This document shows positions 24,310 through 62,207 of a DNA stretch of 64,000 bases, one piece after another. The translations under genes were made by a program, and so were the position numbers. Every line of letters starts with the position of its first letter. Positions within the stretch are counted from its first letter, which is position 1. The notes beneath the pieces were generated by a model, which was given only the letters and a program-made list of their open reading frames with translations, made no database searches and had not been told where the DNA came from. The stretch covers positions 13,292 through 77,291 of IMG/VR virus record IMGVR_UViG_3300025875_000010; one strand, 5' to 3'. The DNA is from a virus. Taxonomy: Duplodnaviria > Caudoviricetes.

Positions 24310-24857
24310 TACTGTTCCTCTGACCTTTTCAAGACAGTCAAGTTGTCAATATGCTTTCCGAATGGATCAAATGTTGGTGTGACTCCTTGAACTTCAAATA
24401 CCGTTGGCAATCCGGTCTCTTCCTCTTGCCACAAGATTGCATCATTACTACCTCTAATGTTTGTAACAAGCTGTCTGCGGTTTAACACATATTTAGCAGG
24501 AAATACCATCTGAATTGCTTCAAATGGCATATACTTTCCATCTAGAAAGTTTTCATTGTTTGCTGATGAGCGAAAACCTACTTCTGGGAACCCACGCACG
24601 TAACATTCAATATCGAATCTATTAGTAGTTGGCTTCCATGTGGTCCCTCTATCTCTTTTGATAGGTGTCGCCACGGCAGCATCTTCTCGCCACTCCTTTT
24701 TAATGCCTCCGGTCTCGGGGTCCTGCACAACTTCCCAGTGTCCACTCTTAATTAAATCCTCAGCACTAGGAGTTTCTTCCGCAGCATTAACTGAGGCATA
24801 CTCATTAAGAACAGTTGCCTTCATATTAAATCGAACACCTAAAAGAGTATGAATCAT
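24309..24857 (-). CDS. head-to-tail stopper-like protein
   Basis: 182 aa; position and VFEVQGVTPTFDPFG motif. Confidence 0.6.
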   Translation of the reverse strand: MIHTLLGVRFNMKATVLNEYASVNAAEETPSAEDLIKSGHWEVVQDPETGGIKKEWREDAAVATPIKRDRGTTWKPTTNRFDIECYVRGFPEVGFRSSANNENFLDGKYMPFEAIQMVFPAKYVLNRRQLVTNIRGSNDAILWQEEETGLPTVFEVQGVTPTFDPFGKHIDNLTVLKRSEEQ

Positions 24858-25732
24858 ATAATCACCATGCCCTGCCTGCGATATGGCTCTAGCAGATCAT
24901 CCGCACGCTTGTTGCCCGTTCCACGGAAGGCACCGGCAGAATACATTAGATTCCAATCTCCGGACTTCATGGATTCTAGGTAACGATCACGGTAGATTGT
25001 CTCACCACTTCCATAGTCTTTAGCTAGCAGCAATGCGGCCTGACGGATATCATCTGGTACTGAATAATATCCCCACTCTCCCTCAATTTCATAAGTAGTG
25101 CCCGAACGGAACTTCTTCCAATAGGAATCTGGAACTACGATGACTCCACTAACAAGCTGAACATTATCGATATAGTCCTCTGGTGGCATTTCTTTAATGG
25201 TGAAATAGTTCTTATTACCTACGTATAGGTACCAACCATCGTTAGAGGTATTAAAATATCCAACCGGGCCTCCCTTGATTCTATGGACGCGCATTAGACG
25301 TTTAGGCAAAGCGATCTTTTTTTCTCCATTGCCCACCACGCTGCATGTTCCTATTTCATAACCAAAGTCTTGCTGAGTGTAAGTTTCTATAAAAATACGA
25401 ACCTGCTCTTCCAAATCCTTCAACTCGCCATCAGCAATATGAACATCTTGGAAAACCGTTTTTAGATCACTCAATGAAACTAGCGGTGTAATAACTTCAA
25501 CTGAGGTTGTCCTCTTAAAAGGATTGTCCCACGTTCCGCCGACCCACTCAATATCCAATCTTCCATCAAACTGAGTCTGGACATAAGTTAACTCTAATTC
25601 ATAATTTGGGGCTGGCATTAAACCGACCTGCCTGTGAATCTCTTGACCATCCTTATAGACAATTGCAGTCAATGGACCGGGAAATGGATGTTCAAAAGTT
25701 ACAGTTGCATTAGTGTCACGGTAAACGCTCAT
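24854..25732 (-). CDS. head-to-tail adaptor
   Basis: 292 aa; IEGEWGYYSVPDDIRQAALLL, ADDLLEPYRR; leaderless promoter TTGATA-17-TACAAT-6-ATG. Confidence 0.75.
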   Translation of the reverse strand: MSVYRDTNATVTFEHPFPGPLTAIVYKDGQEIHRQVGLMPAPNYELELTYVQTQFDGRLDIEWVGGTWDNPFKRTTSVEVITPLVSLSDLKTVFQDVHIADGELKDLEEQVRIFIETYTQQDFGYEIGTCSVVGNGEKKIALPKRLMRVHRIKGGPVGYFNTSNDGWYLYVGNKNYFTIKEMPPEDYIDNVQLVSGVIVVPDSYWKKFRSGTTYEIEGEWGYYSVPDDIRQAALLLAKDYGSGETIYRDRYLESMKSGDWNLMYSAGAFRGTGNKRADDLLEPYRRQGMVII

Positions 25733-25763: not shown

Positions 25764-28700
25764 TCAAACTGTGCGATTGACTGTAGCCTCAACAACACCA
25801 GCCTGTAGCTTAGCTCCAAGGGGACCATACGTATACAAACCAATATTATAATTACTACCCCAACGCTCACCGGCTGCCCAGTACGTCACACTAACTCCCG
25901 CATCATTAAGAACAGTGTATGCAGACTGACCGACAGCATTCCACTGGGCCGTAGCAGGCCAACCGATTTCACCAATAAGACCCTTTTGGTTGTGCGTAGC
26001 AAGCCATTCAGTAAAATCATTAAGCTCATCTATTACACGAGCAGATAGATTTGCATAACCACGATTGACCGCATCAGTATTTACCACATCATAAGATTCT
26101 GCGTAAACTCCATTATTAGCAGGATCAAAGTAATAATGAGCCTCGTATACGGTCTTATTGGCGGGATCAGTAATCCAAGGGTTACCGTTCTTTAGTGCCC
26201 ATTCTTTAGCTCCGCTCCAAGAATCACCGGCAATATAAATTATTCTGGTGTCACCAGTTCCTCTAATTGCAGTTACAGCAGCCTGGGAAGCAGACTTCCA
26301 CGGAGTCAACCCGGCGGCGCCCAAAGAGCCTTGAGCAAAATTATCAATATCAACAGTGTATGATGTTCCTGAAACAGCATCATTAGAGTCAATTTGAACC
26401 GCAAAAGCGTTAGACGTAAAGTCAGAATCATAGGTAGCCACGACGTTAACCGCAACTCCTGGAATTAACTGAGATACCGTTGCGCCCGTGTCTGCGCGCG
26501 TGTGTGTGATGTTAGGTGCTGTCACCCACTGGTAGCTAGAATTCTGATATTGTGGCATGGCTCTCCATACACCCGCTGTACCGGCTGCTAGTGTCACCTG
26601 AATAGAAAGTGATCTTCCTGTCAACGTGCCTCCCAGCTTTTGCCCAGCGTCATCACGACGAATTGCCAAGAATCCAGATGAAGATGCAGTTGCAACAAGA
26701 CGAAGTTTTCCGCTAGTACTACTTGCTGTTACTGTACCGCCACCGCCGGTCCATCCCTGAATACTGGTAGCCCAATCGTATCTTGTGGTGCCAGTAAACG
26801 CGCCAACGGGTGCGGGCGGAAGATCATGAGGCTCATTCATCAAACCCCATCCCACAATAGAAGTCTTACCAGCAAAACGCTGCTGCAACTTCGTCCACAC
26901 ATCAGCAAAATTTGCATCAGTCAAGCCTGCTCCAAACATAACCTCAGTATCATCAGTCTTTACAAATCGACCATAATTATGGAGATCAGGAATAACATAC
27001 AAGCCAGCAGCAGATGCTCTATCAATGGCATCTGATAGTTCTGTGATGCCTGGCTCAGACAACGCTCCACCGAGAACATTCTGTACTCTTTCCCAACGGA
27101 AAGGCATTCTTACTACCTTGTGACCTCTTGAATAGTAATAATCAAGGGATGCCCTAGAGTCATAAGAATAATCTGTGCTGTATACTCCCGGCAAAGAAAG
27201 TGGTTCATGAGCAAACTCTCCACCGGCTGAGTTAACTCCACGTAGAGTTACGGGAACGGCAGAAGCAGTTAAGGCAGCAGTTGCTGTTGCCTCTCCACCA
27301 ACGCCAACAGCTTTAAGTTCAATAGTTTGTCCTGCTGTCATCTGATACGAAGTTAACTGAGTATCAATCTCAACCCACGCACCGGCGTTTGCCCTGATGT
27401 AAAGCAAATCGGGCAATCCGGTTACCGTGAAGGTTACCAAACCAGAAGCGTTAATTTTTAGATTGTTAATTGTTGGTGGAAGAATTCTGTGAAACTTAGG
27501 CCAATAAATTCCCAGATTAGGAACATTGTTAGCATTGTCTACACAGCTTACAACTAACCCTGTACCGGCCAGACCGGGGTGAGCCTTGTAAGCATAAGTT
27601 GCCAATCCCGAAGCAACAGGCTTTTTGAAGTGGGCTGTATTCTCATAAGCTTCCCTCTCGGAATAAGCCTTAAGCGTACACTGAGCAACAGTCTTATCAG
27701 CAAACCCTCCACCCCAAAATGGAGTGTACTGAATGCGAAGAGTTCCGTTTGGATTAATGGATCTTATAACTGCATCATAACCAGGATCATCTTTAACGTG
27801 ATCGCCAATCTGAAAAGTTGGTGGTGGTGGTCTGTATCCACCGCCCGGAGCTACTACAAAATTACCATTGCCATCCTTGGCGCTAACTCGCACTCCACCG
27901 CGCATAAATGGGAAGCTTCCAACACAATCTACAATAACATACCGGCCGTCGGACCTTTTGTGTACACTCCCCTCAGAGGTGTCTGGATTCTCAGAAATTA
28001 CAAAACCTTGAATTGGATCTGTTGACCAACCTCCAAAACCATTGTAATATTCTATGTTTGCTTGTGTACCTATTCCGGTAAAGTTAGCTGTAGACCAACG
28101 GCACAAGACCCATCCACTGAATCTATTAATAGCAAATATATGAATGTAGCCACCTTCGATGGATGGGCTGAATACTGGACGGAAGCCAGTATCTCCACTA
28201 GCATAAAGCAATGTAGATACCCAAGTTGTAATATTAGTCGTCTTGGCATTTGGCACCCTGTGAACGCACCATCCCCACTCTCCACCTAACGGATTATTTG
28301 ATTGAACGCGCATAGAGAGAACATACAGGTCATTTCCAATAAACACTCCGTCCATCGGCCACGAATAATGTGTATCTGAAATTGGGAACCAACGCAAGCT
28401 AGGACTCGTTGCCTTGTAGAATGTTACCGTAGAAGTAGAAAGATCAGGACCAGACTGAATAGCTAAACTGTCGTTAGTCATAACTGATCCGTTACGATCT
28501 ACTGGAATTCCTGTTGCTGAATCTCTCCAATAGGTATCAGCAAACAGCCACAAAACCCGGCCGGTTCCATCATTAAACGGAATGCTTCTAGCAGAGTCTG
28601 CACCCAGCCATCTGCCAGTATTACCGGTCCTTGGATCAAACTTAATATCTAGATCAGGAGCAGGCTGAACATTATACGCTTGTGTGTGTGTGTACACCAT

Positions 28701-28787
28701 TTCATTACCGGCGAAAATTCTATCAATTCGATTAGCACCCGCTTTGAGTTTACCGAAAGTATTGCTGCCCATTTTAACTGTTGGCAT
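25764..28787 (-). CDS. multidomain virion-associated glycosidase: DUF4185/DUF5005-like propeller + GH5 catalytic domain with inserted beta-sandwich
   Basis: WLGADS..RVLWLFADT propeller motif; RMPFRWER, DLHNY, MNEPH, EAHYY, IGEIG GH5 motifs. Confidence 0.8.
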   Translation of the reverse strand: MPTVKMGSNTFGKLKAGANRIDRIFAGNEMVYTHTQAYNVQPAPDLDIKFDPRTGNTGRWLGADSARSIPFNDGTGRVLWLFADTYWRDSATGIPVDRNGSVMTNDSLAIQSGPDLSTSTVTFYKATSPSLRWFPISDTHYSWPMDGVFIGNDLYVLSMRVQSNNPLGGEWGWCVHRVPNAKTTNITTWVSTLLYASGDTGFRPVFSPSIEGGYIHIFAINRFSGWVLCRWSTANFTGIGTQANIEYYNGFGGWSTDPIQGFVISENPDTSEGSVHKRSDGRYVIVDCVGSFPFMRGGVRVSAKDGNGNFVVAPGGGYRPPPPTFQIGDHVKDDPGYDAVIRSINPNGTLRIQYTPFWGGGFADKTVAQCTLKAYSEREAYENTAHFKKPVASGLATYAYKAHPGLAGTGLVVSCVDNANNVPNLGIYWPKFHRILPPTINNLKINASGLVTFTVTGLPDLLYIRANAGAWVEIDTQLTSYQMTAGQTIELKAVGVGGEATATAALTASAVPVTLRGVNSAGGEFAHEPLSLPGVYSTDYSYDSRASLDYYYSRGHKVVRMPFRWERVQNVLGGALSEPGITELSDAIDRASAAGLYVIPDLHNYGRFVKTDDTEVMFGAGLTDANFADVWTKLQQRFAGKTSIVGWGLMNEPHDLPPAPVGAFTGTTRYDWATSIQGWTGGGGTVTASSTSGKLRLVATASSSGFLAIRRDDAGQKLGGTLTGRSLSIQVTLAAGTAGVWRAMPQYQNSSYQWVTAPNITHTRADTGATVSQLIPGVAVNVVATYDSDFTSNAFAVQIDSNDAVSGTSYTVDIDNFAQGSLGAAGLTPWKSASQAAVTAIRGTGDTRIIYIAGDSWSGAKEWALKNGNPWITDPANKTVYEAHYYFDPANNGVYAESYDVVNTDAVNRGYANLSARVIDELNDFTEWLATHNQKGLIGEIGWPATAQWNAVGQSAYTVLNDAGVSVTYWAAGERWGSNYNIGLYTYGPLGAKLQAGVVEATVNRTV

Positions 28788-28790
28788 ATG

Positions 28791-30014
28791 TCACCCCTGA
28801 ATCACATAAAGTGTTGTAGCTACCTTGGTTGCCAGGGCATCATAAGCGGACTGAGTAATTGATCTTACTTCTGTGATTCCTACTCCCGTAACCTTGGTGT
28901 CAACTAGCGGCTTAAGGCTAGCTGGTGTAACTGCTCTGAATTGCTCTGTACCGGTATTTGTCTCGGTGACAGAAGCCAATTCAATAATTCCAGCTACCGA
29001 TGTAGTAGCTGGGCGAACGGTTGGAGCCGTAGCTGTACCCGTTAGGTCACCGGCAAGTTGAATTAGACCCGGCGTTGTTGTAGTTGCATTTGGTGGGGTA
29101 TAATCTCCGGCTTTGGCTGTACCGGCTATAGTGCCAATCACCAAACTAGAAGTACCAGCGCCAATAGTAGTTCTAACTGTGGCCGCATCGACAGAAGTAA
29201 TGATGGTACGACCGATGGGTGTTGAGTCAGTAATATTAGCAGACGTAACTGTACCACCGGTTCCACCTCCTGGCGTTGACCATGTGCCATCACCTCGAAG
29301 ATATGTAGTTGCATCTCTTGTTCCTGTGGCTGTCAAATCAGTAACGACGTGAGTGTGAGCTAAAGGAGTTCTAGCATCACTAAGTCTCGAATCATTACCG
29401 GCCGCTGCCGTACCTGCCGTTGTACCAATAACAAGACTTGATGTTCCAGAGCCCGTAGCTGTACGCACAGCAGCAGCATCGACAGCAGTTAATATGGTTC
29501 TACCAATTGCTGTTGAATTGGAAATATCTGTCGCCGTATGAGTGTGAATAGTGTTTGCCTTACCAGCCAAACCGGGAACCGTTGGTGCTGCTGCTGTACC
29601 GGCCAAGTCACCGGCAAGTTGAATAATTCCCTTTGCTGTAGTTGTAGCGTCAGTACCCCCAGCACCCGTTTGCCCCTGGGGAATTCCTATGTTAAGAGTC
29701 TGATTCGGCGCGGCGCCCGTGATGGTCGCAGTTGCGCTAGCACCAGCAGCCAAAGTGCTTACCGTACCAATCGACAAAACATTAGTTGGGCCAGTTTCTC
29801 CGATAGCACCTCTAGGAATTCCTAGAGCAAGCGTGCGGGCGGAAGGAGTACCCCCTAATGTTACTGTGGGGGTAGCTCCCGCCGCTAACGCGCTAGCAGA
29901 GGCGCTGGTAATTGTACCGGCAGGTCCCTGCGAACCGGTAGGACCAGCATATCCAGGCACCTCAACGGTGATGACTTCAATGTCATCTGGGCTGTATGGA
30001 ATCGGCATGGTCAT
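28791..30014 (-). CDS. fibre protein with collagen-like and Thr/Ala repeats
   Basis: GPTGSQGPAG, LALGIPRG, repeated GIIQLAGDL and ISNSTAIGRTILTA; C-terminal SITQSAYDALATKVATTLYVI. Confidence 0.7.
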   Translation of the reverse strand: MTMPIPYSPDDIEVITVEVPGYAGPTGSQGPAGTITSASASALAAGATPTVTLGGTPSARTLALGIPRGAIGETGPTNVLSIGTVSTLAAGASATATITGAAPNQTLNIGIPQGQTGAGGTDATTTAKGIIQLAGDLAGTAAAPTVPGLAGKANTIHTHTATDISNSTAIGRTILTAVDAAAVRTATGSGTSSLVIGTTAGTAAAGNDSRLSDARTPLAHTHVVTDLTATGTRDATTYLRGDGTWSTPGGGTGGTVTSANITDSTPIGRTIITSVDAATVRTTIGAGTSSLVIGTIAGTAKAGDYTPPNATTTTPGLIQLAGDLTGTATAPTVRPATTSVAGIIELASVTETNTGTEQFRAVTPASLKPLVDTKVTGVGITEVRSITQSAYDALATKVATTLYVIQG

Positions 30015-30052
30015 GACCTGATTATACCTGCTCCATGATTATTTAGCAAAAA

Positions 30053-33000
30053 TTATGAATAGGTCTTGCTATTAGTGTAGGCCACAACATTTGAGTTATT
30101 ATATGCTGTGAACTTTCTAGTAACAGCCGTTCCCGTATCAGTAATCTCAATAATGCTGTACTGCTCAACCGTTCCGCTAGATGGGCTTGGTCCCCAAGTC
30201 AATGTGTTAACCTTTTTCGAAGCACCCTGATGAAGAGGTGAAGAATGCATAACAGGAATACCAAGTGAATTGGTTCCATCGTCATATCCAACGGCGTGCA
30301 TATCACCAGCCAAAATTTCAACGTTCTTGCCGCTAGCCTTAATAAAGTTGGCTAGCTCAGTACGCTCTGTGTTGTAACTAGGCCACTCATCATCAGCATC
30401 AGAATAATTTGAGAATGGCTGATCATTTCCCCAAAAGATTAGAGGCTCCGTTGCAGCCGTAATCGTATTCTTAAACCAAGTCTTCTGCTCAGCACCCAAA
30501 ACAGTCTTTGAGCTATTGTCCGTAGCCGTTTGTACTGACTTGTAACTGCGGTTGTCGGTAACAATAAATCTAACTCTACCAATAACATACGTGTGATAGA
30601 TTCCACCAGTAGCCGATGGCAATGAGTAATGCGGTACGCGCTTACGATATGCAGACTGAGCATATGGCTTAACAGTCGCTCCGGTGCCGCCAGTTCCATA
30701 TGAATTGTTTGGACCGAAATCGTGATCACTCCACGTATAATCAAAAGCCATTTCCTTAAGCATTGGCCCAGAACCTGATGCGCTCAGCATTGTGTTAAAC
30801 TTATTGTGGTAATTAGTCTCAGATGCTGTTGCATTGTCCGCATAGTGAAAATCTCCAACAGACAAGAAGAAGAGTGGAGAGTGAGCCTTAATTCTACCAT
30901 AAGCTGCCGAAACACCATTTGCGTTGTCACATGAGGAAAAGGCAAACTTAAAGCTACTTGCGCCCTGAGGTGCTGTCCTCAAAGATTGAATCTTAGCTTT
31001 ATCAATACCGGACCCTAGCTGCATTGCATAGTAATACTTAGTATTAGGTGTTAAGCCTGTAATTGTAGACTTCACATAACCGGCGCTATCTGGTGTTGAG
31101 GTAGTGGCAGCTAGAATTGGATTAGACATATCCGCTGAGGTGCTGACAGCAAGCTTCGCGGAAGGAGCACCTGAAGCCGTAGCTGATGCAGTAAATCCTG
31201 TAGACGTTAAGCCACCAGCCCACATTGTAACAATTGAGCCCGTTGGGTTTCCTGTACTGGTCTGGTTATGATAAGGGTTGGTAACCCCTGTTGGTACCGG
31301 CCAACCGGTATGCCAGTGCCACAAATCTCTAATTTCTGTAGATGCATATTCCGTGGCAGAGGCACTTGTTTCATTGAATTGGTTATAGTTACCCACCTTT
31401 TGGTACCAACTTGAACTTCCAGTAGATACCAAAGCATTTGAAGTAGCTGCTGGTACATTCATATTATTGTAGTAAAATCTTGCTTCACCAGCAACTATTT
31501 CTAGCATGCCCTCAAACTCTGTATTAGGAACATAATTATCGGCAAATACTACAATCTGACTTCCATTAGCCCTACCGACCAAACGGCACGTTCCATCACC
31601 ATTGCTGGTTGTACGAATAGCAAGGCGCTCAGTGTCTCCATTATGAAGCTGAGCAATACATACCTCTGAATCATCCGGCGGAAGGTGTGTTACGCGCGCA
31701 CGGAAGTGTAGCTGATGAACACCACCATCTTTTGCATCGAAGCCCATGTTTGTCCCGTTCAAATCAAGCTCTCTCAATTCAGAGCGCGCGAAGCTAGAGC
31801 CTGATGTTGTTGGGCCGTCAGCCCTCGCCCAAAATTGCACTCTATTAATTCCACCACTATTAACAACCTTGAAGTAAGGATCTTCGTTGTAACCGGCGGC
31901 AATGTCAGCCTGAGTCTTTGTGACAAACGTACTTCCACCATTAGGTGCAACCTGAACAGAAAAATGATTTTTTCCAGGTGCTGTGCCAATATTCAAAACC
32001 GTAGCTGGTGTTCCCGTTGGTGTTGGAGCTGGATCAACGGGTGTGGTTGGTGTTGTCGTAATGGCCGGTGAATAAACAGACTCGATGGCCTTATTGAATA
32101 CCGTGGGCCAGCCCGTGTGCCAGTGCTCCAAATCTCTTACAATAACTCTAGAATATTCAGAAGGAAGATCCGATGTAGAGTTGCTTCTATTCTGAACACC
32201 AACCCTGAACGACCAAGAAGCTGATCCTGTAGAGAGCAAAGCTGTTGAAGTAATAATTGGATCTCTCATGCTACCGTAATAAATTCTAAGCTGTCCATCA
32301 ACAACTCGAATTGAAAACTCAAATTCTGCATTAAGAACCAGAGGGTCCATTAAGCGAGGTGTGACCAAAGAACCATTAATAAACGCTCCCAAAGATACCA
32401 CACCATTAGATAGATATGCTCTGATTGATGCTCGGTCTCCCGAACCATTATTAAGCTCTGCAATTACTGTCTCGGGGTTGTTAGGTGGAAGATGAACAAT
32501 TCTCATCTTACCTCGGATGTAATGTGTTCCTACAAATGGGTTAAAAGTATATACTGAGCCATTAGAATTAACTTCTTTTAACTCCGTTCCAGTGAAATTA
32601 GAACCGGGAAGCTTCGGACCATCCAGTCTAGCACTCATCTGAACACCTCTCGTTTCAGATGGTGCTAATCTATAGAAGTCTACACTAGACATTACTGGAC
32701 TTAAAAAGCCTAGAGCTTGACGAAGAAGGCCAACCTTTCTGGATACTACCGCATCCCTAGCCACGACAGACTTAGCTAGAAGTGCTAAATGATCAGACAT
32801 TAAGAAACAGTGCAAATCTGCAATATCTTCTGTTACATTATATCTTGCCCAATCGCTCATGTAACCGGCCGGGTGGTCACCAGTAAAGGATGCTCCAAAT
32901 GCAGAACCAGACGGGTTCTGTGCAGAAAAATTAGCCTGCATTGCAGCATCCCATACTGTATTAAGATAAATGGCAGCGTGCATGTACTCGTGATGGAACT

Positions 33001-34540
33001 GCTTTCTAAATACCCTATCTCCCCAACGAGAATCAAGAAAAATAGTTGTTGTTGCCGCAGACCAAATGCTTGCTCCTGGACTGTTCATGTAACTAACACC
33101 ATCAGTAATGGCTACTGTTGACAACGGTGTTGATTGGACTCCCGCTGATGGATACTTGGCAACTTCCTGCACAAGAGCGCCAACCCTATTCTTAATGGTT
33201 TCCAAATCAGTCAGTGCCGTCCAAGAAATATTTTCTACATTAGAGCCTGTGGCCGGAACGGTCACATTGAATCCATATGTTGCTTCAATTGGATCAAGAG
33301 CAGCTAGAACACCGTCTAAGCTGGTTGCCGCATTAACTGCCGAAATAATAGAAAATGTATTGTAGTACCTCTTAGCTGGTTCATGATACGAAGCATCAAA
33401 GTATGGAGATAATGCAAATCCCGCACTAACCTCAGAGCCTGTCTTGATAACGGGCGCACTTAAGCCATCTCTTGACATTGCCAATGAGAAGTGATTCATT
33501 CCATCCAATGGATCAAGATGTAGTAGCTGAGCTGGAGATGCAGAAATATGCTTGGCATGATCTACCGGACGAATTCTACCGTTGCCATAAATTCCCAAAA
33601 CCTGCAAGGGCACCATGGCACCATTTCGCCAAATATAAAAATCTGTTTCAGTTACAGTTCCACTTAATGAAGTCCGAATAGTTTGAGCCGCTGATTCTGC
33701 TGAGCGGTTTCCTGCGGCGTCCACAGCAGATACCGTGTAGCTATACGCAGTGTTGGCTGACAAACCAGTGTCAACGTAGGTCCTATTGGTTAGTGCTGGG
33801 GCAATAGTAACCCCGTTGCGCTGAACCCTATATGAAGCTACACCTACATTATCAGTGCTAGCATTCCATGAAATGCTAGTGCTAGTTGGATCGTTTGCAA
33901 ATAAAATAATTCCGGAAGGCACGGTTGGTGCGGTCGTATCAACCTCGGGGGCAGCGGAAAGATCGGTAGAAGCAAATCTGGCAATTCTTAAGCTGGGTGC
34001 TGTAGTTCCGCTGGAATAAACTCCCACGCCTCGCTGAGTGGCTGGCACTGCACCAGAAGCATCTTGAGCCTGAACAACTAGAACATCATTAACATAGCCA
34101 CGAAGGATAACGGCACTAGATGTTTCTTCAACTTCTAGCTTCATCTTTAATCCTTCGATCCTAGAATCGGTAGGAGTATTTCCACTTCCTAGCATGGTCA
34201 TCGTAGTGCTGTTGGCTTCCTTGCGACGAATGGAAAACGCTGTTCCCGTACTTCCAGTCAAAAAGAATCCATAAAAAGCTTCGGTATTAGAATTAGAAGT
34301 TCCCAATTCTGGGAGGCGAACACAAGGCCCAGTGAAGCTTCCACCGTAAGTGTTTCCCATCTGAAAAGCAGATGAATGATTTCCTGTAGCCATAACAACC
34401 GGTGCGCGCTCAACATATGTATTTGTACCGGGCGGAACTATCGCACCCGACTTAAGGAGCATGCGGCTAGAATAGCCAGTCCAACCGTTTCCAGGTGAAC
34501 TGGCGTCGCCCCTATCAAACTCGTCATTAAAAACTGTCAT
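30053..34540 (-). CDS. giant multi-enzyme protein: FN3 + two PL7-like lyase domains + HExxH peptidase insert + PhoD-like alkaline phosphatase
   Basis: RSELRE/AQLH/YQKVGNYNQ (PL7); HHEYMH; FSSC, GDFHYAD, WSDHDF, TDNRSY, GDMH (PhoD). Confidence 0.8.
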   Translation of the reverse strand: MTVFNDEFDRGDASSPGNGWTGYSSRMLLKSGAIVPPGTNTYVERAPVVMATGNHSSAFQMGNTYGGSFTGPCVRLPELGTSNSNTEAFYGFFLTGSTGTAFSIRRKEANSTTMTMLGSGNTPTDSRIEGLKMKLEVEETSSAVILRGYVNDVLVVQAQDASGAVPATQRGVGVYSSGTTAPSLRIARFASTDLSAAPEVDTTAPTVPSGIILFANDPTSTSISWNASTDNVGVASYRVQRNGVTIAPALTNRTYVDTGLSANTAYSYTVSAVDAAGNRSAESAAQTIRTSLSGTVTETDFYIWRNGAMVPLQVLGIYGNGRIRPVDHAKHISASPAQLLHLDPLDGMNHFSLAMSRDGLSAPVIKTGSEVSAGFALSPYFDASYHEPAKRYYNTFSIISAVNAATSLDGVLAALDPIEATYGFNVTVPATGSNVENISWTALTDLETIKNRVGALVQEVAKYPSAGVQSTPLSTVAITDGVSYMNSPGASIWSAATTTIFLDSRWGDRVFRKQFHHEYMHAAIYLNTVWDAAMQANFSAQNPSGSAFGASFTGDHPAGYMSDWARYNVTEDIADLHCFLMSDHLALLAKSVVARDAVVSRKVGLLRQALGFLSPVMSSVDFYRLAPSETRGVQMSARLDGPKLPGSNFTGTELKEVNSNGSVYTFNPFVGTHYIRGKMRIVHLPPNNPETVIAELNNGSGDRASIRAYLSNGVVSLGAFINGSLVTPRLMDPLVLNAEFEFSIRVVDGQLRIYYGSMRDPIITSTALLSTGSASWSFRVGVQNRSNSTSDLPSEYSRVIVRDLEHWHTGWPTVFNKAIESVYSPAITTTPTTPVDPAPTPTGTPATVLNIGTAPGKNHFSVQVAPNGGSTFVTKTQADIAAGYNEDPYFKVVNSGGINRVQFWARADGPTTSGSSFARSELRELDLNGTNMGFDAKDGGVHQLHFRARVTHLPPDDSEVCIAQLHNGDTERLAIRTTSNGDGTCRLVGRANGSQIVVFADNYVPNTEFEGMLEIVAGEARFYYNNMNVPAATSNALVSTGSSSWYQKVGNYNQFNETSASATEYASTEIRDLWHWHTGWPVPTGVTNPYHNQTSTGNPTGSIVTMWAGGLTSTGFTASATASGAPSAKLAVSTSADMSNPILAATTSTPDSAGYVKSTITGLTPNTKYYYAMQLGSGIDKAKIQSLRTAPQGASSFKFAFSSCDNANGVSAAYGRIKAHSPLFFLSVGDFHYADNATASETNYHNKFNTMLSASGSGPMLKEMAFDYTWSDHDFGPNNSYGTGGTGATVKPYAQSAYRKRVPHYSLPSATGGIYHTYVIGRVRFIVTDNRSYKSVQTATDNSSKTVLGAEQKTWFKNTITAATEPLIFWGNDQPFSNYSDADDEWPSYNTERTELANFIKASGKNVEILAGDMHAVGYDDGTNSLGIPVMHSSPLHQGASKKVNTLTWGPSPSSGTVEQYSIIEITDTGTAVTRKFTAYNNSNVVAYTNSKTYS

Positions 34541-36567
34541 TACGTCTCCTTAAAAATTATTGTGCCTTCTGGTGTTCCTGCTGGGGGAGAACTATCTGCT
34601 GGGCCTAGGACTACAAAACCATTTGAAGTTCCACTATTTCCTCCAACCTTCTTTCCGTCTACCGGCGAAGTCGGCTTGCCTAGCTTAATTCTCAAGTCCC
34701 CATCTGGATCGACCCATAAGTGATACTGACCAATCATAGGATGAACTGAGCTGTATTCGGACTGGAATGGTGGAACTACCGGAACCTTTACACCATTGAT
34801 CGTAATATATCCAAAGGAGTAAGTTACTGCATCGGACGGTGCCTGGATTGTAGCAGAGGCAGTTACAATATTTGATGACAATGTACCAGAAGTAACCCAC
34901 GCCCTAATCGTACGTGGAGTCGTCTCTTCCACTGAATTATACACATATGTTCCATTGGCTGAGGCCGTGTCATTGATTGTACCATCTCCCCAATCAACAT
35001 GATAAACCAAGGGAGTATTATTTGGATCGAACGATCCATCAAAACTGTAGGTAACCTCTAATGGGCCAACTCCTACTGTTGGAATTGGGCTTAAAATCTT
35101 AAAGGCCAATACCGGAGCACCATCAGGAGCAATAATAGTTCCTGTTGACTTGGTTGCCGTAGAAGTTAATCCATTGGCATCTGTTGTCGTAACACTAATA
35201 TCAAATGATCTAGCCACTGTAATAGGATAAGTGTGACTTGCGGTCTTGGTTGGTTCATTTACCTGCTGAACCGATGAACCATCACCCCAGTTAATCTTAT
35301 GGTTAGCCATAGCATTTGTACCGGCCGTTGATGTAACTGTAACGGTAGCGGTCTGTGCGTTTACGGAAACGTTAAAGTTCGCTACCGGAGGATTTATAGT
35401 GACAACCGGATCGGGAGTAGTGCCGCCGGGTGAGGTGACTGTTCCAGCAACCTTTCCCCAAGTGCCGTTTCCGCTAACTAACCAATCTCCCCATCGAGGG
35501 AGAAGTCTTCTAGCGTTGCGCTCTGACACCTGACTAGGAACCGGCCAATTAAGACCAGGGTATAGGTGATTAGCCACCCAAGGCTGAATGTGCATCCACT
35601 TATTGAATTCAGGTTCAGCGGGCAGCCATAGAGGCACATTCGATAGGTTCAGGTTGTCGCGCATGAAAAGAATGTTTCTCTTGATTGCTGAGTTTACCCA
35701 ACTAGCTGCGTCAGCATATCCTGCATTAACTAGAATTGGAATAAGAACTAGCGCACCATCGATGCACTCATACTGGTAGTGAATTCCGTCACCGGTTCTC
35801 AATGGTGGCCCCCCAGAACGGGATGCGTCTTCTACGTTTGCACCAGATAGAACCTTATTTGCAACCTCGGCATTAATTACACCCTGTGAGCTTGGGTAGG
35901 TTGCCACGTCCCAACCAGAATTGAAAGATCCAGTAGCAATGAAGGTATTTTGAATAGTAGTATCTCCCAACCAGCGCTTGTAGAATCTAATCATTTCATC
36001 CAGAGTTCCTTGTACCGTAGTAGGCGCTCCCGATGGAACACCGGCCAAAGTAGTGATGCCGTGCTTTTTTAAATACAGCAAAATGATGATAGAAGATACA
36101 CGAGCGCATGCTCCCCAGTTGTTACCCGAAGTCTTACCACATTTGTATAATGAATTCCAGTTGGCCTGACCTGGCATCGTTGCATGAATTGCATAACGCC
36201 CCCATTCTACCATCGTATTACGAGGGGCAGACTTTCCTGTGCTACGATGTGGGTCCATTCCTACAAGGTCGGCAGCCAAGAAGTAAACCCCCCAGGTGCG
36301 GTATGGATTTAACGGTTGATCGGTAGTAAGTTCAGTACCCATAGCCTCGATAATTTCAGATTCGACTTTAGCCTTGCCTAGACCGCCGCCGTCCTTGGAA
36401 TATCTGATTGCAATATCCAATACATTCTGAGGGTGCAATTGGTCAACAACACCCATGTTTGCTGCGCCCGGATCGGCATTAGACTTTGAGGCCAATGAGG
36501 TCCAAGCTCCACCGCTGGTTGGCAATGAAGCTAGCGTTGTTTCCTTATATAGTAGATAATCTGGCAT
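34540..36567 (-). CDS. putative polysaccharide lyase-like protein with PKD domains
   Basis: N-terminal NNW...IHYQY pattern; two PKD-like WGDG motifs; tailspike-like GQYHLWVDPDGDLRIKLGKPTS C-terminus. Confidence 0.55.
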   Translation of the reverse strand: MPDYLLYKETTLASLPTSGGAWTSLASKSNADPGAANMGVVDQLHPQNVLDIAIRYSKDGGGLGKAKVESEIIEAMGTELTTDQPLNPYRTWGVYFLAADLVGMDPHRSTGKSAPRNTMVEWGRYAIHATMPGQANWNSLYKCGKTSGNNWGACARVSSIIILLYLKKHGITTLAGVPSGAPTTVQGTLDEMIRFYKRWLGDTTIQNTFIATGSFNSGWDVATYPSSQGVINAEVANKVLSGANVEDASRSGGPPLRTGDGIHYQYECIDGALVLIPILVNAGYADAASWVNSAIKRNILFMRDNLNLSNVPLWLPAEPEFNKWMHIQPWVANHLYPGLNWPVPSQVSERNARRLLPRWGDWLVSGNGTWGKVAGTVTSPGGTTPDPVVTINPPVANFNVSVNAQTATVTVTSTAGTNAMANHKINWGDGSSVQQVNEPTKTASHTYPITVARSFDISVTTTDANGLTSTATKSTGTIIAPDGAPVLAFKILSPIPTVGVGPLEVTYSFDGSFDPNNTPLVYHVDWGDGTINDTASANGTYVYNSVEETTPRTIRAWVTSGTLSSNIVTASATIQAPSDAVTYSFGYITINGVKVPVVPPFQSEYSSVHPMIGQYHLWVDPDGDLRIKLGKPTSPVDGKKVGGNSGTSNGFVVLGPADSSPPAGTPEGTIIFKET

Positions 36568-36579
36568 CTGTCATTCTCC

Positions 36580-37362
36580 TTAAATTTCTGTTACTATCAT
36601 ATAAACTTGTGTTCCATCAGGTAGATTGGCTACGTCTGGATTAATTCCATAAACCGCGCCGCCACCCCCACCACCAGGCTGCGTTGACATTTCATCAATT
36701 CTCGAACTAAGAACATTTTGAATATTGTCAATGTAAATCTTTGGAGCCACTTGACGATCAGTTACAGGATCATTATCTATATGAATCTGACCAATGGTAA
36801 ACGTATTATCTGTGGCTCTTTTTACTAATGTTCCTCCACCGCTAACGCTAGTCGCAGCAGTCAAATCGGAATGGGTGTGATTACCTGCTGCCGCTGTCGC
36901 ACTTGTGGTACCCAAAACAACTGCCCCAATAATTGCTCTTACTGCCGGGGCATCTGCTGCGGTTAAAATACTTCTACCGGTTACAGACGAATCTGTAATG
37001 TTTGTTGAAATAACTGCTCCGGCTGATCCGGCATCACCGCGAGGAATAGTTAAATTGAGAGAGTAATTTGGAGCGCTGCCCGTTATGGTGGCTGTAGCAT
37101 TACTTCCCGGCGCTCCGGTAGAAACCGTACCGATTGTCATTGCTGCTGCTGGACCCGCAACTCCCGGATCACCCTTTGGAAGAACTAGATTAAGCGTTTG
37201 GTTTGGTGCCGTGCCAGTAATAGTTGCCGATGCACTTGCACCACCAGCGACTGTTCCTATTGTAAGAGTGTTTGAGAGACCATTTGGTCCTGGGTCTCCT
37301 CTAGGCCCTACTGGACCCGGAGCGCCTGGTAATTCTATTGTTATTACCTGCGCTGGCATCAA
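36580..37362 (-). CDS. collagen-like fibre protein
   Basis: GPVGPRGDPGP, LNLVLPKG, LNLTIPRG repeats; paralogous to 28791..30014. Confidence 0.7.
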   Translation of the reverse strand: MMPAQVITIELPGAPGPVGPRGDPGPNGLSNTLTIGTVAGGASASATITGTAPNQTLNLVLPKGDPGVAGPAAAMTIGTVSTGAPGSNATATITGSAPNYSLNLTIPRGDAGSAGAVISTNITDSSVTGRSILTAADAPAVRAIIGAVVLGTTSATAAAGNHTHSDLTAATSVSGGGTLVKRATDNTFTIGQIHIDNDPVTDRQVAPKIYIDNIQNVLSSRIDEMSTQPGGGGGGAVYGINPDVANLPDGTQVYMIVTEI

Positions 37363-37754
37363 TCATCAACCTCGCCATGAACAACTACGTCACCGGCCAA
37401 ATATGTCCTAGCATCACCGTTAGGTTCCACTATCTGAAAATTCCAGATGTAATCACCCGGTGGAATTGTCTTTGTAATTGAGGTTGGCATGTACAAATCT
37501 ACCTTATTGGTATCACGAATAGTACACGTGTAATTATACTGAATTGGGCCAGATAGCGATGCACTAATCATTGCTTCCGCAGTCAATCCATTCAGATTAA
37601 TAGGCTGTAGAACACCACTTGCGTCTTTGGCCTCCATGACAATTGTAAACTTTTGAGAGTCACCCTTCCAGATGGTCATGTTGTAGTTGCTTGGCAACTT
37701 TTGCATGCCAAAATTACCAGTGGGTACTTCCCCTGGAAAAATTACATCGGCCAT
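37359..37754 (-). CDS. BppU-like adaptor protein
   Basis: NMTIWKGDSQKFTI...YIWNFQI...RTYLAGDVVV pattern. Confidence 0.6.
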   Translation of the reverse strand: MADVIFPGEVPTGNFGMQKLPSNYNMTIWKGDSQKFTIVMEAKDASGVLQPINLNGLTAEAMISASLSGPIQYNYTCTIRDTNKVDLYMPTSITKTIPPGDYIWNFQIVEPNGDARTYLAGDVVVHGEVDD

Positions 37755-37764
37755 TTGCTCACTC

Positions 37765-38052
37765 CTACTGTATTCTTAAAATTCCGCGAGTTATCTCCCG
37801 GTCATCTAGATATAGTGTATAGTACATCACCGTAAATTCAAAATGAGTAGATTGCTCGGCAAGCACTCTCCACACTGCACCGGTCCTCAATCTTGAGAGG
37901 CCACCGTTCTTTACGGTAAACTCTCTGGCAAAAGAGCCTCTCTCCAAGATAACCTTAAAATCTCCATTGGGCAAGACGATAGATTTACCCTGTGCATTCT
38001 TGAAATTAAAGGTTTCCTCGAAGCTCTCGCCCTTTGTCAGAGTAAAATTCAT
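37765..38052 (-). CDS. BppU-like adaptor protein
   Basis: TLTKGESFEETF...ITRGILRIQ pattern, similar layout to neighbour. Confidence 0.5.
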   Translation of the reverse strand: MNFTLTKGESFEETFNFKNAQGKSIVLPNGDFKVILERGSFAREFTVKNGGLSRLRTGAVWRVLAEQSTHFEFTVMYYTLYLDDREITRGILRIQ

Positions 38053-38486
38053 TAGCCTGCGTAGAACTCTCTGAGTTCTCTTGGTGTAGCTACTCTGAAC
38101 CCGCCGTCTACCTCAACCAAATAATCTGCATCCTCTTCCTTTACAAGAGCATATGGGTGCTGACGATTGAACTTGTATCCTCGAATCTCATAAGAGAAGT
38201 TGGTACGGATCATCTTGACGACGACATATTCGTCCTCTTCCTCTTCCACGACCACCTCTTCTTCCACTGTTCCGGTAAAATCCTCAGGAATTAAAGCAAT
38301 TTCCTCTTCTTCTATTTCAGGCTCTAGAGTCTCCTCATACATAAGCCAAGTAACTCCCATCTCACCAAGCTCGGTAAGAATATCGGCCTTCTTTGTCTTG
38401 CCGTCCAAGTCAACTGCAAACTGCCTTGCAACCTCTTTTAGCTCAGGAATAGTTAATTCTTTAAAACTCTTATCTCCTAGTGCCAT
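38052..38486 (-). CDS. Rho-N/HeH-like domain protein, probable capsid-associated
   Basis: LTIPELKEVARQFAVDLDGKTKKADIL; own promoter TTGACT-17-TACAAT at ~38515-38543. Confidence 0.6.
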   Translation of the reverse strand: MALGDKSFKELTIPELKEVARQFAVDLDGKTKKADILTELGEMGVTWLMYEETLEPEIEEEEIALIPEDFTGTVEEEVVVEEEEDEYVVVKMIRTNFSYEIRGYKFNRQHPYALVKEEDADYLVEVDGGFRVATPRELREFYAG

Positions 38487-38552
38487 TTAAATCAAATCCT
38501 CTCTGTTGAACTTCATTGTATCTGGTGATCTGTTTTAAGTCAATTAAAGCCA

Positions 38553-38586
38553 GAAAGACCGGGAAGGTTTCCCCTCCCGGTCTTTC
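38553..38586 (-). terminator. terminator after major capsid gene
   Basis: 12-bp perfect stem GAAAGACCGGGA/TCCCGGTCTTTC. Confidence 0.75.
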
Positions 38587-38597
38587 ATGGACTGTTA

Positions 38598-39599
38598 TCA
38601 GGCTCCTGTACCGACTCCAATGTTACGGACGATTACGAATGCCTCAGTGTTCTCGATCTGAGTTCCTACACGGCAGAACATGGTGTACTCAATTGTGTCC
38701 TTCTTGGCTGCGTACTGGCGTACGACCTTGATTTCACGCTTGACTCCCCATAGAAGGTTCTGTGGGAAGGTTAGCCATAGCTCACCGTGGTCACCTGTAG
38801 CACCAGAGTAGCTTCCGTCCTGGGTCTCATCGAATAGTGGAACCTCCTGTAGAGGCACTCCGAATAGACGACCAGCGTTGAATCCAGCGGCTCCGTCAGG
38901 TACAACCTGTGCGTTAGTGTCTCCATAAGTTGCAAGATTAACGTCAAGCGTACGAGAGTAAAGCCAATCCTGAATCAAGTTGCTTCCTGCGAAGAACTTC
39001 AACTGTCCTCTGCGCTGCATGAACTTACGTGGCATTGCCTTAATTGCAGCGTTAGCTGCGGCAAGGTTAAGTGGCTCTCCACCGTTGTCAATGATGTGGG
39101 CTGCACCATCGGTTGTACCGTTGATAGCAAGCTTCCTCCAACCATCGAAGACCTTTAGGGTCTTGTCAGAGCTGGTGGTATCACCATTAATTGCCAAGTC
39201 CTCCAAGTCCATTCCGGCCTGAGTTGCCATTAGGCGCGCGATGTGATCCTCCAATGCCTCACCCTCAAGGTTGTCCTCAAGTGTTTCGGTTGAAAGCTCC
39301 CAGTCAAGACGTAGCTTGTGGGTACGCATGTTGATCTTAGAGAAGAATACACCCTGGTTTTCACCAGTGTCTACCGCCTCTACAGCACCACGTAGCAAGC
39401 GCTGTCCGACACCGATACGATCAATTTCCTGCTCAGTAGAGCGCATGCGGATTGTGCGAACCTGACCACCTAGGACTGTTGAGTCCCACATGTAGTCGAT
39501 GAACTGATTTGCCTGCTCCGGAGCCAAAAGGCCAGAGCCAGGTGGGGAACCAATCTCGGTAGAGACGATTACCTTTTCAAGTAGTTCGTTGTTGCTCAT
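38598..39599 (-). CDS. major capsid protein (HK97 fold)
   Basis: 333 aa; SGLLAPEQANQFID, DLEDLAINGD, RLFGVPLQEVP. Confidence 0.9.
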   Translation of the reverse strand: MSNNELLEKVIVSTEIGSPPGSGLLAPEQANQFIDYMWDSTVLGGQVRTIRMRSTEQEIDRIGVGQRLLRGAVEAVDTGENQGVFFSKINMRTHKLRLDWELSTETLEDNLEGEALEDHIARLMATQAGMDLEDLAINGDTTSSDKTLKVFDGWRKLAINGTTDGAAHIIDNGGEPLNLAAANAAIKAMPRKFMQRRGQLKFFAGSNLIQDWLYSRTLDVNLATYGDTNAQVVPDGAAGFNAGRLFGVPLQEVPLFDETQDGSYSGATGDHGELWLTFPQNLLWGVKREIKVVRQYAAKKDTIEYTMFCRVGTQIENTEAFVIVRNIGVGTGA

Positions 39600-41002: not shown

Positions 41003-41634
41003 AGGTAAATGTTAACACCGTTTTCTTCAAAAGCAAAATCAAACACATACGTACGGTAATCAGCAGAGCTTCGGTTGCCCTTTGATGAATTACACGATCT
41101 ACAAAGCGGTTGCAAATTATCAATCAAATTGCTTCCACCTTGCGTAATCGGCACTACATGATCTATAGCAATATTATCTCTGGAGCCGCACGCCAAACAT
41201 TTCTTTCCATAAGCTAGGAAAATAGCCTCAATAACATCCGCTGTAATAACACCACTTGAAAGTTTTTTCTTAGAATTATAGTTGTGCCAAGCTGCTTTGT
41301 GTCTTTCAGGGTTTGCCTTATATGGTGGATTAAGACTATTGCGCTGCCTCTTCATCTCTCGATAGCAAAGGCGGCAGCGGCTCTCTCTACCATCCGTAGA
41401 GTTAGTTCGTAAGTTAAATTCTACTAATGCTTTTACCTTTTGACAAGAAATACATTTCTTGTCTGTTGCGCGGGCACGGTTCTGAACAGCAACCACTCTT
41501 AACACACTCTTGGCGTCTTTATTTTTTCTACAAATTTTGCAAACCGTTTGCAATCCATCTTTAGCTAAAGAGTTTCGGCCAAAATTTTCAAATAACTTAG
41601 ACTCCATACAAACCGCACATATTTTAGTTATCAT
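40999..41634 (-). CDS. HNH endonuclease with N-terminal Cys repeats
   Basis: CLACG..IAIDHVVPITQGGSNLIDNLQPLCRSCNSSKG. Confidence 0.9.
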   Translation of the reverse strand: MITKICAVCMESKLFENFGRNSLAKDGLQTVCKICRKNKDAKSVLRVVAVQNRARATDKKCISCQKVKALVEFNLRTNSTDGRESRCRLCYREMKRQRNSLNPPYKANPERHKAAWHNYNSKKKLSSGVITADVIEAIFLAYGKKCLACGSRDNIAIDHVVPITQGGSNLIDNLQPLCRSCNSSKGNRSSADYRTYVFDFAFEENGVNIYL

Positions 41635-62150: not shown

Positions 62151-62207
62151 GTCCTATCGGGTAGTGAGTGAGTGTTAGCTATGTGCCCGGTACTGCGAGG
62201 GGTAAAC

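Follow-up and report, generated by a model that had tools for sequence, protein, structure and literature searches.

Seven open reading frames (ORFs) lie side by side at positions 25764-38052, minus strand, of the viral DNA analyzed here, a window of 64 kb out of a 77-kb metagenome-derived IMG/VR record (IMGVR_UViG_3300025875_000010; CheckV completeness ~60%). Read along that strand, the upstream part of the region encodes the portal, an HNH endonuclease, the prohead protease, the major capsid protein, and g144; the cassette itself follows as g95, g131, g260, g675, g1495, g407, and g1007, after which come the head-to-tail adaptor, four small genes, the tail tube protein, two small genes, and a 2169-amino acid (aa) tape measure. 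The genes of this slot, its borders, and the region around it are uniformly on the minus strand. A first-pass annotation made from the sequence alone had placed seven genes between a capsid/Rho-N-like gene and the adaptor, and the sizes and ends it gave are exact. On a balance that tips slightly in its favor, the cassette is read here as encoding a virion-borne array of collar, fibers, and enzymes, most likely at the neck of the particle, that acts on polymers of the host envelope or matrix.

Among the small proteins, g131 (131 aa; 37359-37754, minus strand) falls into the ring-forming collar class of Ig-like proteins represented by T5 p132, the N-terminal ring domain of BppU, and the Bas63 collar. 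Modeled with AlphaFold2 from 22 aligned sequences (pLDDT 83), it adopts an Ig-like β-sandwich of the BppU-N/p132 type, preceded by a 19-aa N-terminal extension that is conserved and poorly modeled. The closest folds are p132 of DT57C and T5 (Z 12.1 and 11.9; root-mean-square deviation (rmsd) 2.4 Å over 114 aa), followed by residues 1-105 of BppU from the mycobacteriophage Douge (Z 10.2), the neck collars of Bas63 and Sf14 (Z 8.3-8.5), and TP901-1 BppU (Z 7.9), with the first unrelated fold, filamin, at Z 8.8. Sequence identity to the T5 p132 and BppU ring domains is 12-16%, and by profile the protein matches phrog_1084.

Its neighbor g95 (95 aa; 37765-38052, minus strand) is likewise a small Ig-like protein (AlphaFold2 pLDDT 95.6). 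The N-domain of the P74-26 neck collar gp112 is its top fold match (Z 9.7, rmsd 1.8 Å over 72 aa), with the Bas63 collar at Z 9.6 and T5 p132 at Z 9.2; because antibody domains are close behind at Z 8.8, however, the collar match is not discriminating. Profile comparison of g95 with g131 (hhalign probability 61%, E 8e-5) suggests that g95 is a probable paralogue of g131 and a second collar or adaptor subunit. Both proteins had been called BppU-like adaptors in the first-pass annotation, a description that is well supported for g131 (p132, Z 12) and plausible for g95, whose likeness is generically Ig-like only.

The two fiber proteins share a common build. Fiber A, g260 (260 aa; 36580-37362, minus strand), begins with a strand-PG N-terminus and continues through a short collagen-like GXY run and ~45-aa β repeats to an “NLPDGT” C-terminus. 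Fiber B, g407 (407 aa; 28791-30014, minus strand), likewise has a strand-PG N-terminus, a collagen-like run, and β repeats, and extends through DUF5907 repeats to a Phage_tail_C end; the N-terminal 250 residues of the two are 32% identical. Such a strand-PG and collagen-like start is common to most fibers in the corresponding slot of related phages, some of them with strong Collagen matches, and is missing from L006_482 (the 1551-aa fiber of locus L013 was left out of this comparison). The fiber nature of both proteins and the layout of fiber followed by enzyme, as first proposed, are borne out; the “collagen” label applies to stretches of just 4-5 GXY triplets. In PHROG comparisons g260 matches tail, minor tail, and head-fiber families, and its C-terminal ~25 aa resemble those of L087_148, a small protein encoded ahead of a g675 homologue. 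The Pfam matches of g407 are to DUF5907 (E 3e-13), the T4 gp34-like repeats of the proximal long tail fiber, and, at the extreme C-terminus, to Phage_tail_C (PF24243, E 1.7e-9). Its last 35 aa hardly vary from one unrelated phage to another, and the whole protein is 65% identical to a 462-aa fiber in locus L083.

The Phage_tail_C end of g407 is of particular significance for the protein encoded next to it. The N-terminus of g1007 carries a set of three small “h-Y/F-h-G” units, here called the YxG repeat (residues 4-32), which aligns with the N-termini of 15 partner proteins; a regular-expression search of the 77-kb contig finds a single copy of this motif. A scan of IMG/VR for the Phage_tail_C end yielded 48 loci (L095-L142) with 30 distinct pairs of fiber and next ORF. 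A terminal YxG repeat is present in the next ORF in 20 of the 30 pairs (17 N-terminal, 3 C-terminal), as compared with 41 among the 1223 ORFs of the background (odds ratio 58; p = 4e-21 by Fisher's test), and at least three more next ORFs have degenerate copies recognizable by eye. Manual inspection of five enzyme-bearing loci (L083, L013, L089, L093, and L094) showed in every one a Phage_tail_C fiber followed by a DUF5005 or PhoD enzyme, and in these loci the YxG repeat is at the C-terminus of the enzyme. DUF5005 proteins fused to Sipho_Gp37, by contrast, have no YxG repeat. So strongly non-random a pairing argues that g1007 is the distal part of the g407 fiber. Judged from sequence, Phage_tail_C and YxG look like a widespread two-protein fiber joint of which g407 and g1007 are one instance. 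Profiles of the two elements found no solved structure among PDB sequences and a literature search returned no paper naming PF24243, so that, as far as these searches show, the pairing is undescribed. The succession of a protein with the Phage_tail_C motif at its end (…Y-D-A-L-x-T-K-x-x-x-T-L-Y-V-I-x-G) and an ORF with the YxG repeat at its start, located in the present case at window 28662-28830, occurs in very diverse phages, including contigs of 100-240 kb.

In g1007 (1007 aa; 25764-28787, minus strand), the YxG repeat is followed by a DUF5005/DUF4185-like domain (~40-440), an Ig-like linker, and a GH5 glycosidase domain (510-1000). The GH5 assignment rests on Pfam PF00150 (E 9e-33, in two stretches) and on PDB entry 4lx4 (E 1e-46); the endoglucanases matched in the PDB range from E 1e-46 to 1e-14, with alignments split between residues 513-655 and 829-983. 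The acid/base motif NEP is found at 651 and the nucleophile motif GEIG at 939, as is typical of the family, and the barrel is interrupted directly after the NEP strand by an insert of ~170 aa (656-828). Evidence for the N-terminal domain is more mixed. Precomputed annotation from a newer Pfam release assigns it to DUF5005 (PF16396; PF16396.13), homologues at 41-49% identity (L083_742, L013_752, and tail-module proteins of L085 and L086) hit that family at E <= 1e-5, and an ESM Atlas score of 0.81 provides a lead only. The local PF16396.11 and PF13810.12 models, on the other hand, give no match at E <= 1, whole-contig hidden Markov model scans are negative, and the profile of the domain family finds no PDB sequence. 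For the “DUF4185-like propeller” of the first reading, support is thus confined to the precomputed DUF5005 matches of Pfam 38 and the ESM lead and finds no echo in the local models. In a collection of 50,697 phage records searched by tblastn, the N-domain has no homologue in cultured phages and two weak matches to g1007 cover the GH5 part only; a scan of IMG/VR with g1007 peptide patterns returned no match.

The largest protein, g1495 (1495 aa; 30053-34540, minus strand), is a mosaic of an N-terminal module, an FN3 domain, two PL7 lyase domains, a zincin, and a PhoD domain. Residues 1-195 form a conserved module to which no family is assigned and residues 200-290 an FN3 domain; a stand-alone protein of 374 aa, encoded beside a g675 homologue in locus L088, shares 46-52% identity with residues 1-283. 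The first PL7 copy (330-386 and 631-815) is degenerate and is interrupted by a 244-aa HExxH zincin (387-630), while the second (846-1082) is intact and is followed by a PhoD_N/PAP_N domain (1095-1180) and a PhoD-like metallophosphoesterase (1199-1490). Copy 2 matches Pfam PF08787 (E 5e-29) and PDB entry 1uai (E 6.5e-17) and retains all of the motifs R-x-E-x-R, Q-x-H, and Y-x-K-x-G-x-Y-x-Q that mark the family. With the zincin insert removed, the two copies are 41% identical over 232 aa, and copy 1 is still recognizable by fold (E 8.5e-6). The residues corresponding to RSELRE, AQLH, and YQKVGNYNQ are lost, however, so that copy 1 does not qualify as a catalytic PL7 domain.

The zincin belongs to a conserved family with 116 detectable relatives, in 27 of which, when aligned, H517, E518, H521, and E571-D572 are invariant. 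Its match to Peptidase_Mx1 (PF15890) stays below the Pfam cut-off, with E 0.16 for the query itself and E 1e-5 to 4e-3 for relatives. The PhoD domain matches PF09423 (E 3.6e-19) and phrog_13624 (E 2.7e-72) and carries the metal-ligand motifs of the family, GDFHY at 1229, SDHDF at 1271, and GDMH at 1412. A search of g1495 against large databases was dominated by FN3 repeat proteins; the informative matches were P0026, P0027, P0069, and P0105.

The third enzyme, g675 (675 aa; 34540-36567, minus strand), is polysaccharide-lyase-like, with an α/α toroid at residues 1-~370, a pair of PKD domains, and, at the C-terminus, a ~95-aa motif resembling the Mtd_N fiber domain. The toroid is assigned to Cap_depo (PF26986) by precomputed annotation and resembles the alginate lyases of PF05426, and the PKD domains are recognized by Pfam as PKD_4. 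For residues 1-365, comparison with the PF05426 clusters of the ESM Atlas gives a feature score of 0.94 and a structural TM score of 0.74; in a homologue, P0144, PF05426 is matched above the cut-off (E 2.4e-7). By profile and fold the N-terminal ~370 aa thus belong to the toroid family. Full-length homologues exist at 37-43% identity, and none was found by tblastn among the cultured phages of the 50,697-record collection. Taken together, the enzymatic content proposed in the first-pass annotation has largely held up: the GH5, PL7-like, and PhoD domains have Pfam and PDB matches along with the expected motifs, one PL7 copy being degenerate; the HExxH peptidase belongs, by its conserved motif, to a probable zincin family; and the further lyase-like domain is the alginate-lyase-like toroid of g675.

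No common means of attachment is apparent in the three enzymes. An all-against-all BLAST comparison found no shared anchor domain, Pfam scans gave no match to β-helix families, and the N-termini show by eye no evident signal peptide, with no Tat or Sec signal visible on the PhoD protein. In other loci, a ~230-aa N-domain with a “MA-x-x-x-VG” start and conserved GD and GW heads enzymes of several types (DUF5005, glycerophosphodiester phosphodiesterase (GDPD), and PhoD) that follow fiber genes; it is found at L083:10001-10720, L013:18060-18779, and L043:13007-13726, and at the N-termini of enzymes of L089, L091, L093, and L094. Comparison of this domain with the N-terminal module of g1495 by hhalign showed no relation.

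How the cassette came to its present content can be approached through the relatives of this phage. The major capsid protein (38598-39599, minus strand; phrog_1623), encoded upstream of g144, is 66-69% identical to capsid proteins of the Streptomyces BK cluster (Stanwilliamsviridae, Loccivirinae), and the G+C content of the window, ~46%, is the same as that of the BK-cluster group. With this capsid protein 80 IMG/VR loci were retrieved, and the distance from capsid to adaptor gene was measured in the 53 that hold both. The slot in 31 of these is 0.56-0.75 kb long and contains a g144 homologue alone. Another 18, among them the cultured phages Muntaha and Comrade, in which the slot genes are annotated “hypothetical,” have slots of 1.7-3.6 kb with g144 (none detected in L062), g131, and one or two fiber-like proteins. 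The last four measure 5.2, 6.2, 6.6, and 9.4 kb, this last being the maximum with which the 12.9 kb of the window compares. A g131 homologue is found in 21 of the 22 relatives with a slot above 1.5 kb (the exception is L043) and in none of the ~0.6-0.7-kb slots, and g95 is confined to the closest relatives.

The larger slots differ in what they carry. That of L083 encodes proteins of 95 and 126 aa, a 462-aa fiber, and a 742-aa DUF5005 protein; that of L013 encodes proteins of 95, 126, and 314 aa, a 1551-aa fiber, and a 752-aa DUF5005 protein; and that of L043 has a 1466-aa protein with a GDPD domain. Syntenic homologues of g95, g131, g407, and the N-domain of g1007 are present in L013 and L083, and both slot borders are conserved; for g675 and g1495, the slots of the relatives compared hold no counterpart. 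The whole cassette has no megablast match among the 50,697 phage records. The region is best explained as an expanded accessory locus in a hypervariable slot of a Loccivirinae-like siphophage of the Streptomyces BK-cluster type. The earlier view of a unique insertion is contradicted by this synteny comparison, as L083, L013, and L043 hold other sets of collar, fiber, and enzyme genes in the same place.

The edges of the slot are formed by two conserved genes that lie outside the cassette. Upstream, g144 (144 aa; 38052-38486, minus strand; phrog_9487, E 1e-32) is built from a SAP/Rho_N-like N-terminus recognized by weak matches, an acidic linker, and a C-terminal domain; tblastn finds homologues in 76 loci, and in 52 of the 53 loci with both capsid and adaptor, those with 0.6-kb slots included. 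Downstream, the head-to-tail adaptor (24854-25732, minus strand; phrog_442, E 1e-26) is 31% identical to Muntaha gp28, annotated “head-to-tail adaptor.” Within these limits the genes from g95 to g1495 are tightly packed, each overlapping the next or following it within 12 nucleotides (nt), with an overlap of 4 nt between the g260 start and the g131 stop, and one of 1 nt between the g1495 start and the g675 stop. A 38-nt gap ahead of g407 contains TTGCTA-17-TATAAT, in which 6 nt lie between the end of the -10 element and the g407 ATG, and 3 nt separate the g407 stop from g1007. This layout suggests two sub-operons that match the two fiber modules. A similar site, TTGATA-17-TACAAT, ends 6 nt upstream of the adaptor ATG, and a third, TTGACT-17-TACAAT, lies between g144 and a strong terminator-like hairpin (GACCGGGAGGGG…CCTTCCCGGTC with a T-run; window 38515-38578, minus strand) directly after the capsid gene. 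The hairpin may attenuate transcription, which would then restart for the accessory genes. Because promoter-like sites in the region are not enriched over shuffled sequence (29 versus 26.4), the leaderless “own promoter” earlier ascribed to g407 is a plausible site only. GC and AT skew at 26-36 kb differ slightly from the flanks, a shift that fits mosaic acquisition.

Modules homologous to those of the cassette are found in quite different genomic settings elsewhere. The g131 and g95 profiles have no detected counterparts in loci L085-L094. Pairs of a small protein and a g675-like lyase recur in L086 and L087, and the DUF5005, GH5, and PhoD domains are each found fused to Sipho_Gp37. The gene for the DUF5005 fusion in L085 and L086 comes immediately behind the tape measure gene and a probable distal tail (Dit) gene, and in two relatives the zincin is fused to Dit domains. 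As homologous domains are thus fused to tail-tip proteins, the targets of the enzymes are taken to be polymers of the host envelope; the proposal that the proteins digest biofilm, soil, or plant polymers and release phosphate, for which no support was found, was set aside on the same grounds. Locus L094, with an unrelated λ-E-type capsid, encodes capsid, connector, Ad1, and Hc1 and then a pair of fiber and PhoD genes, inside the neck module. Modules of a small protein and an enzyme (Cap_depo lyase or PhoD) also occur directly after holin genes, at L086:9252-11989, L093:790-5821, and L088:1373-4857, a placement from which some of them may act at lysis. The unrelated actinophage-type contig L091 (17761-20225) encodes stand-alone GH46 (chitosanase family) and GH16 proteins and, following the lysis genes, a PhoD protein of 1474 aa.

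From gene position, fold analogy, the analogous arrangement in L094, and published collars, we infer how the parts would be attached and where in the virion they would sit. g131, probably together with g95, would form an Ig-like ring, or collar, encircling an axial component of the virion, and the position of the gene makes the neck the most likely site. Trimers of g260 and g407 would hang from this ring, possibly through the strand-PG motif at their N-termini, each bearing as its distal part the enzyme encoded directly downstream, as the pairing of the genes suggests. In the case of g407, the Phage_tail_C end would bind the YxG repeat at the N-terminus of g1007; the load of g260 would be g675, possibly along with g1495. 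The enzymes would cut polymers of the host surface or matrix and so let the particle reach its receptor. Candidate targets are β-glucan, glycans of the polyuronate type, polymers with phosphodiester linkages (teichoic acids, for example), peptide, and possibly arabinan-like glycans. Of the enzyme array anticipated in the first-pass annotation, the bearing of enzymes on fibers is strengthened by the Phage_tail_C/YxG pairing and the lyase pairs, while neck anchoring continues to be argued from gene position and fold analogy, with the best folds coming from the tail tip. A mild further hint that this group of phages has neck appendages is provided by BE-cluster relatives, in electron micrographs of which “neck proteins” are seen (PMC10690885).

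Known systems provide precedents for several of these features. In the “neck passage structure” (NPS) of lactococcal 936 and P335 phages, a BppU-N-like ring domain has been proposed as a collar at the connector, from which trimeric fibers extend to a distal carbohydrate-binding module (CBM) or β-helix (pectin/alginate-lyase-like) module, the whole being accessory and variable between related phages (PMC6669499). The combination of ring domain, fiber, and distal glycan module, accessory and variable, is the same here. The NPS, however, is a single polypeptide of 500-900 aa with a coiled-coil shaft and one CBM as its distal load, whereas in the window the ring (g131 and g95), the shafts (g260 and g407), and the distal modules are separate ORFs, the shafts are made of collagen-like and β repeats, and the distal load comes to ~3,200 aa, in which no fewer than five catalytic domains are predicted. 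Since its ORFs are separate, the locus is a functional analogue or variant rather than a member of the NPS family.

The Ig-like collars offer a second comparison. Bas63 and Sf14 have an Ig-like 12-fold neck ring, with the whiskers of Bas63 borne on the N-terminal extension of the collar (PMC12609058), P74-26 has the neck collar gp112 (PMC12407722), and such collars sit at the interface of adaptor and head-completion proteins or around the terminator (PMC12609058, PMC12407722). The fold matches of g131 and g95 and the conserved N-terminal extension of g131 recall these collars, the whiskers of which differ in bearing no enzymes and the hosts of which are Gram-negative or Thermus. More generally, domains of the p132/BppU type form 12-mer rings around Dit or the neck and bear fibers or whiskers (PMC13033339, PMC12609058); Douge BppU has a CBM of its own (PMC13033339), and TP901-1 BppU holds receptor-binding proteins (PMC6669499). 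T5 p132 and the BppU proteins of TP901-1 and Douge (PDB 7qg9, 8hqz, 8zdo, and 4v96) are the best folds for g131 as rings around the distal tail, from which the present case differs in that theirs is a tail-tip location encoded by tail-module genes. The claim of an undescribed system has thus to be withdrawn, as both the NPS (PMC6669499) and Ig-like collars with whiskers (PMC12609058) were already known. The best reading of the locus is as a split, enzyme-rich variant of the collar-and-whisker and NPS idea.

A different strategy for combining several depolymerases in one virion is found in TSP1-4 of CBA120, gp63.1 and gp66 of G7C, and the Klebsiella phage K64-1, in which adaptor domains hold modular, exchangeable cargo. 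Their spikes are β-helices of one activity each, with T4 gp10-like or XD anchors, on the baseplates of podophages and myophages of Gram-negative hosts. The proteins described here have instead a toroid, a jelly roll, a TIM barrel, and a metallophosphoesterase, with up to four catalytic-type domains per chain, and the joint proposed for them (Phage_tail_C/YxG) is also different. The classical tailspike, a tail-module product in which a trimeric right-handed β-helix is joined to a particle-binding domain at the N-terminus, has no representative in the cassette. Possibly closer in host and domain type is the Gordonia phage GMA6, in which a DUF4185 (GH183) endo-D-arabinanase has been shown experimentally to act on cell-wall arabinan (PMC10115798). 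GMA6 and the present phage would have in common a DUF4185-type domain, putative in g1007, in a large multidomain protein and a probable actinobacterial host, and differ in that the g1007 domain is annotated, as DUF5005, by newer Pfam only and that the Streptomyces hosts of the relatives have no arabinogalactan.

Several findings weigh against an enzyme-bearing collar at the neck. Neither g675 nor g1495 has the YxG motif, and all three enzymes lack the “MA-x-x-x-VG” N-domain that relatives' slot enzymes and many enzymes with a fiber partner possess. The fold of g95 is not separable from generic Ig domains, and the best fold matches of g131, T5 p132 and Douge BppU, are collars of the tail tip rather than of the neck. 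Moreover, g675 homologues in L086 and L088, and also the L093 pair, adjoin holin genes, and PhoD homologues stand among non-structural genes in BE-cluster phages and L089. Part of this evidence would be accommodated if the collar and fibers alone were structural and the three enzymes were soluble late proteins released at lysis, there to clear matrix or capsule for the progeny, to prevent re-adsorption to debris, or to scavenge nutrients, the slot merely tolerating insertions. We consider this unlikely, and yet of the competing explanations it survives best. In its favor are the lack of a recognized anchor domain or “MA-x-x-x-VG” domain in all three proteins, the holin and non-structural neighborhoods of the g675 and PhoD homologues, the stand-alone GH46 and GH16 enzymes of L091, and a skew at 26-36 kb consistent with acquired cargo. 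It is at odds, however, with the Phage_tail_C/YxG pairing, which makes g1007 a fiber partner, as well as with the absence of secretion signals, the tight linkage to collar and fiber genes, the fusion of homologous domains to tail-module proteins, and the pair of fiber and enzyme in the neck module of L094.

If the array is indeed part of the virion, it could also be carried on the tail, with the collar ringing the distal tail tube or Dit and the fibers serving as side fibers of the baseplate. The strength of the tail-tip collars among the g131 matches (T5 and DT57C p132 at Z 12, Douge BppU at Z 10.2; PMC13033339) speaks for such a location, as do PHROG matches of the fibers that are mostly “tail” or “minor tail” and a Pfam description of the C-terminal domain as a “tail tip domain.” The genes, however, lie between capsid and adaptor here and after Hc1 in L094, the neck collars of Bas63, Sf14, and P74-26 have the same fold, and a separate tail-tip module (a 1081-aa protein and an 833-aa Peptidase_S74 fiber) is encoded downstream of the tape measure, so that a position on the tail is rated somewhat lower than release of the enzymes at lysis. 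Fibers bound to capsomers of the head, with the small Ig proteins as capsid decoration, are improbable. Comparable capsid fibers are phi29 gp8.5 and the collagen-like SPP1 gp12, and the placement of the genes directly after the major capsid gene, the collagen-like stretches, and the match of g407 (E 2e-23) and also of g260 to phrog_5711, “head fiber,” would agree with such an arrangement; that match spans only the common fiber repeat, however, which also matches tail families, and the closest folds to g131 are axial rings and not decoration proteins. Least probable of all is an assembly chimera that joins genes from more than one genome, since, despite the metagenomic origin and ~60% completeness of the record, the slightly deviating composition at 26-36 kb, and the lack of counterparts to g675 and g1495 in relatives' slots, the cassette has a uniform strand, abutting or overlapping genes within its sub-operons, syntenic homologues in L013 and L083, and conserved borders.

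Beyond the collar-borne array at the neck lies a broader and more tentative proposal, which we would not at present expect to hold in full: that the slot is a neck-mounted, plug-and-play platform in which an Ig ring and fibers with standardized ends allow unrelated enzymes to be swapped and stacked. It would include a second type of joint for the lyase and at least five catalytic activities per particle, away from the tail tip, and would make Phage_tail_C/YxG a widespread, structurally uncharacterized connector in many phage lineages.

Enzymes carried on fibers of the neck or collar would mean that actinobacterial siphophages bear depolymerase arrays outside the tail tip, and that one particle combines far more activities than in the usual arrangement, where each spike has a single enzyme. 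Prediction of host range and matrix penetration from genomes would change accordingly, and the slot between capsid and adaptor would become a place to seek accessory adhesins and enzymes now annotated “hypothetical.” The Phage_tail_C/YxG pairing provides a testable rule for recognizing neighboring proteins that form one fiber and is a possible engineering handle for phages with exchangeable enzyme cargo. The PL7 lyase with its zincin insert, the GH5 domain with its own inserted domain, and a PhoD enzyme in a virion context are places in which new activities on the surface polymers of actinobacteria might be sought.

Some features outside the slot are also of note. Upstream of the portal, a 518-aa ORF (window 43706-45262, minus strand) matches phrog_11584 and a Laminin_G_3/ConA-like domain (E 2.4e-12); it matches no terminase family, though the large terminase might be expected there, and in BK-cluster phages the same position is taken by genes of 564-811 aa labeled “hypothetical.” Between portal and prohead protease, an HNH/endonuclease VII-like gene (window 40999-41634, minus strand; phrog_1035, E 7e-35) stands where Muntaha and Comrade have a hypothetical or membrane protein of ~150 aa. 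The 833-aa fiber of the tail module (window 7458-9959, minus strand), with FN3, a weak Phage_Tail_Tip match, and a C-terminal Peptidase_S74 intramolecular chaperone, takes the place of a ~2000-aa protein in BK relatives. At the end of the window and record (window 62001-64000), the G+C content rises to 0.55, as compared with ~0.46 elsewhere.

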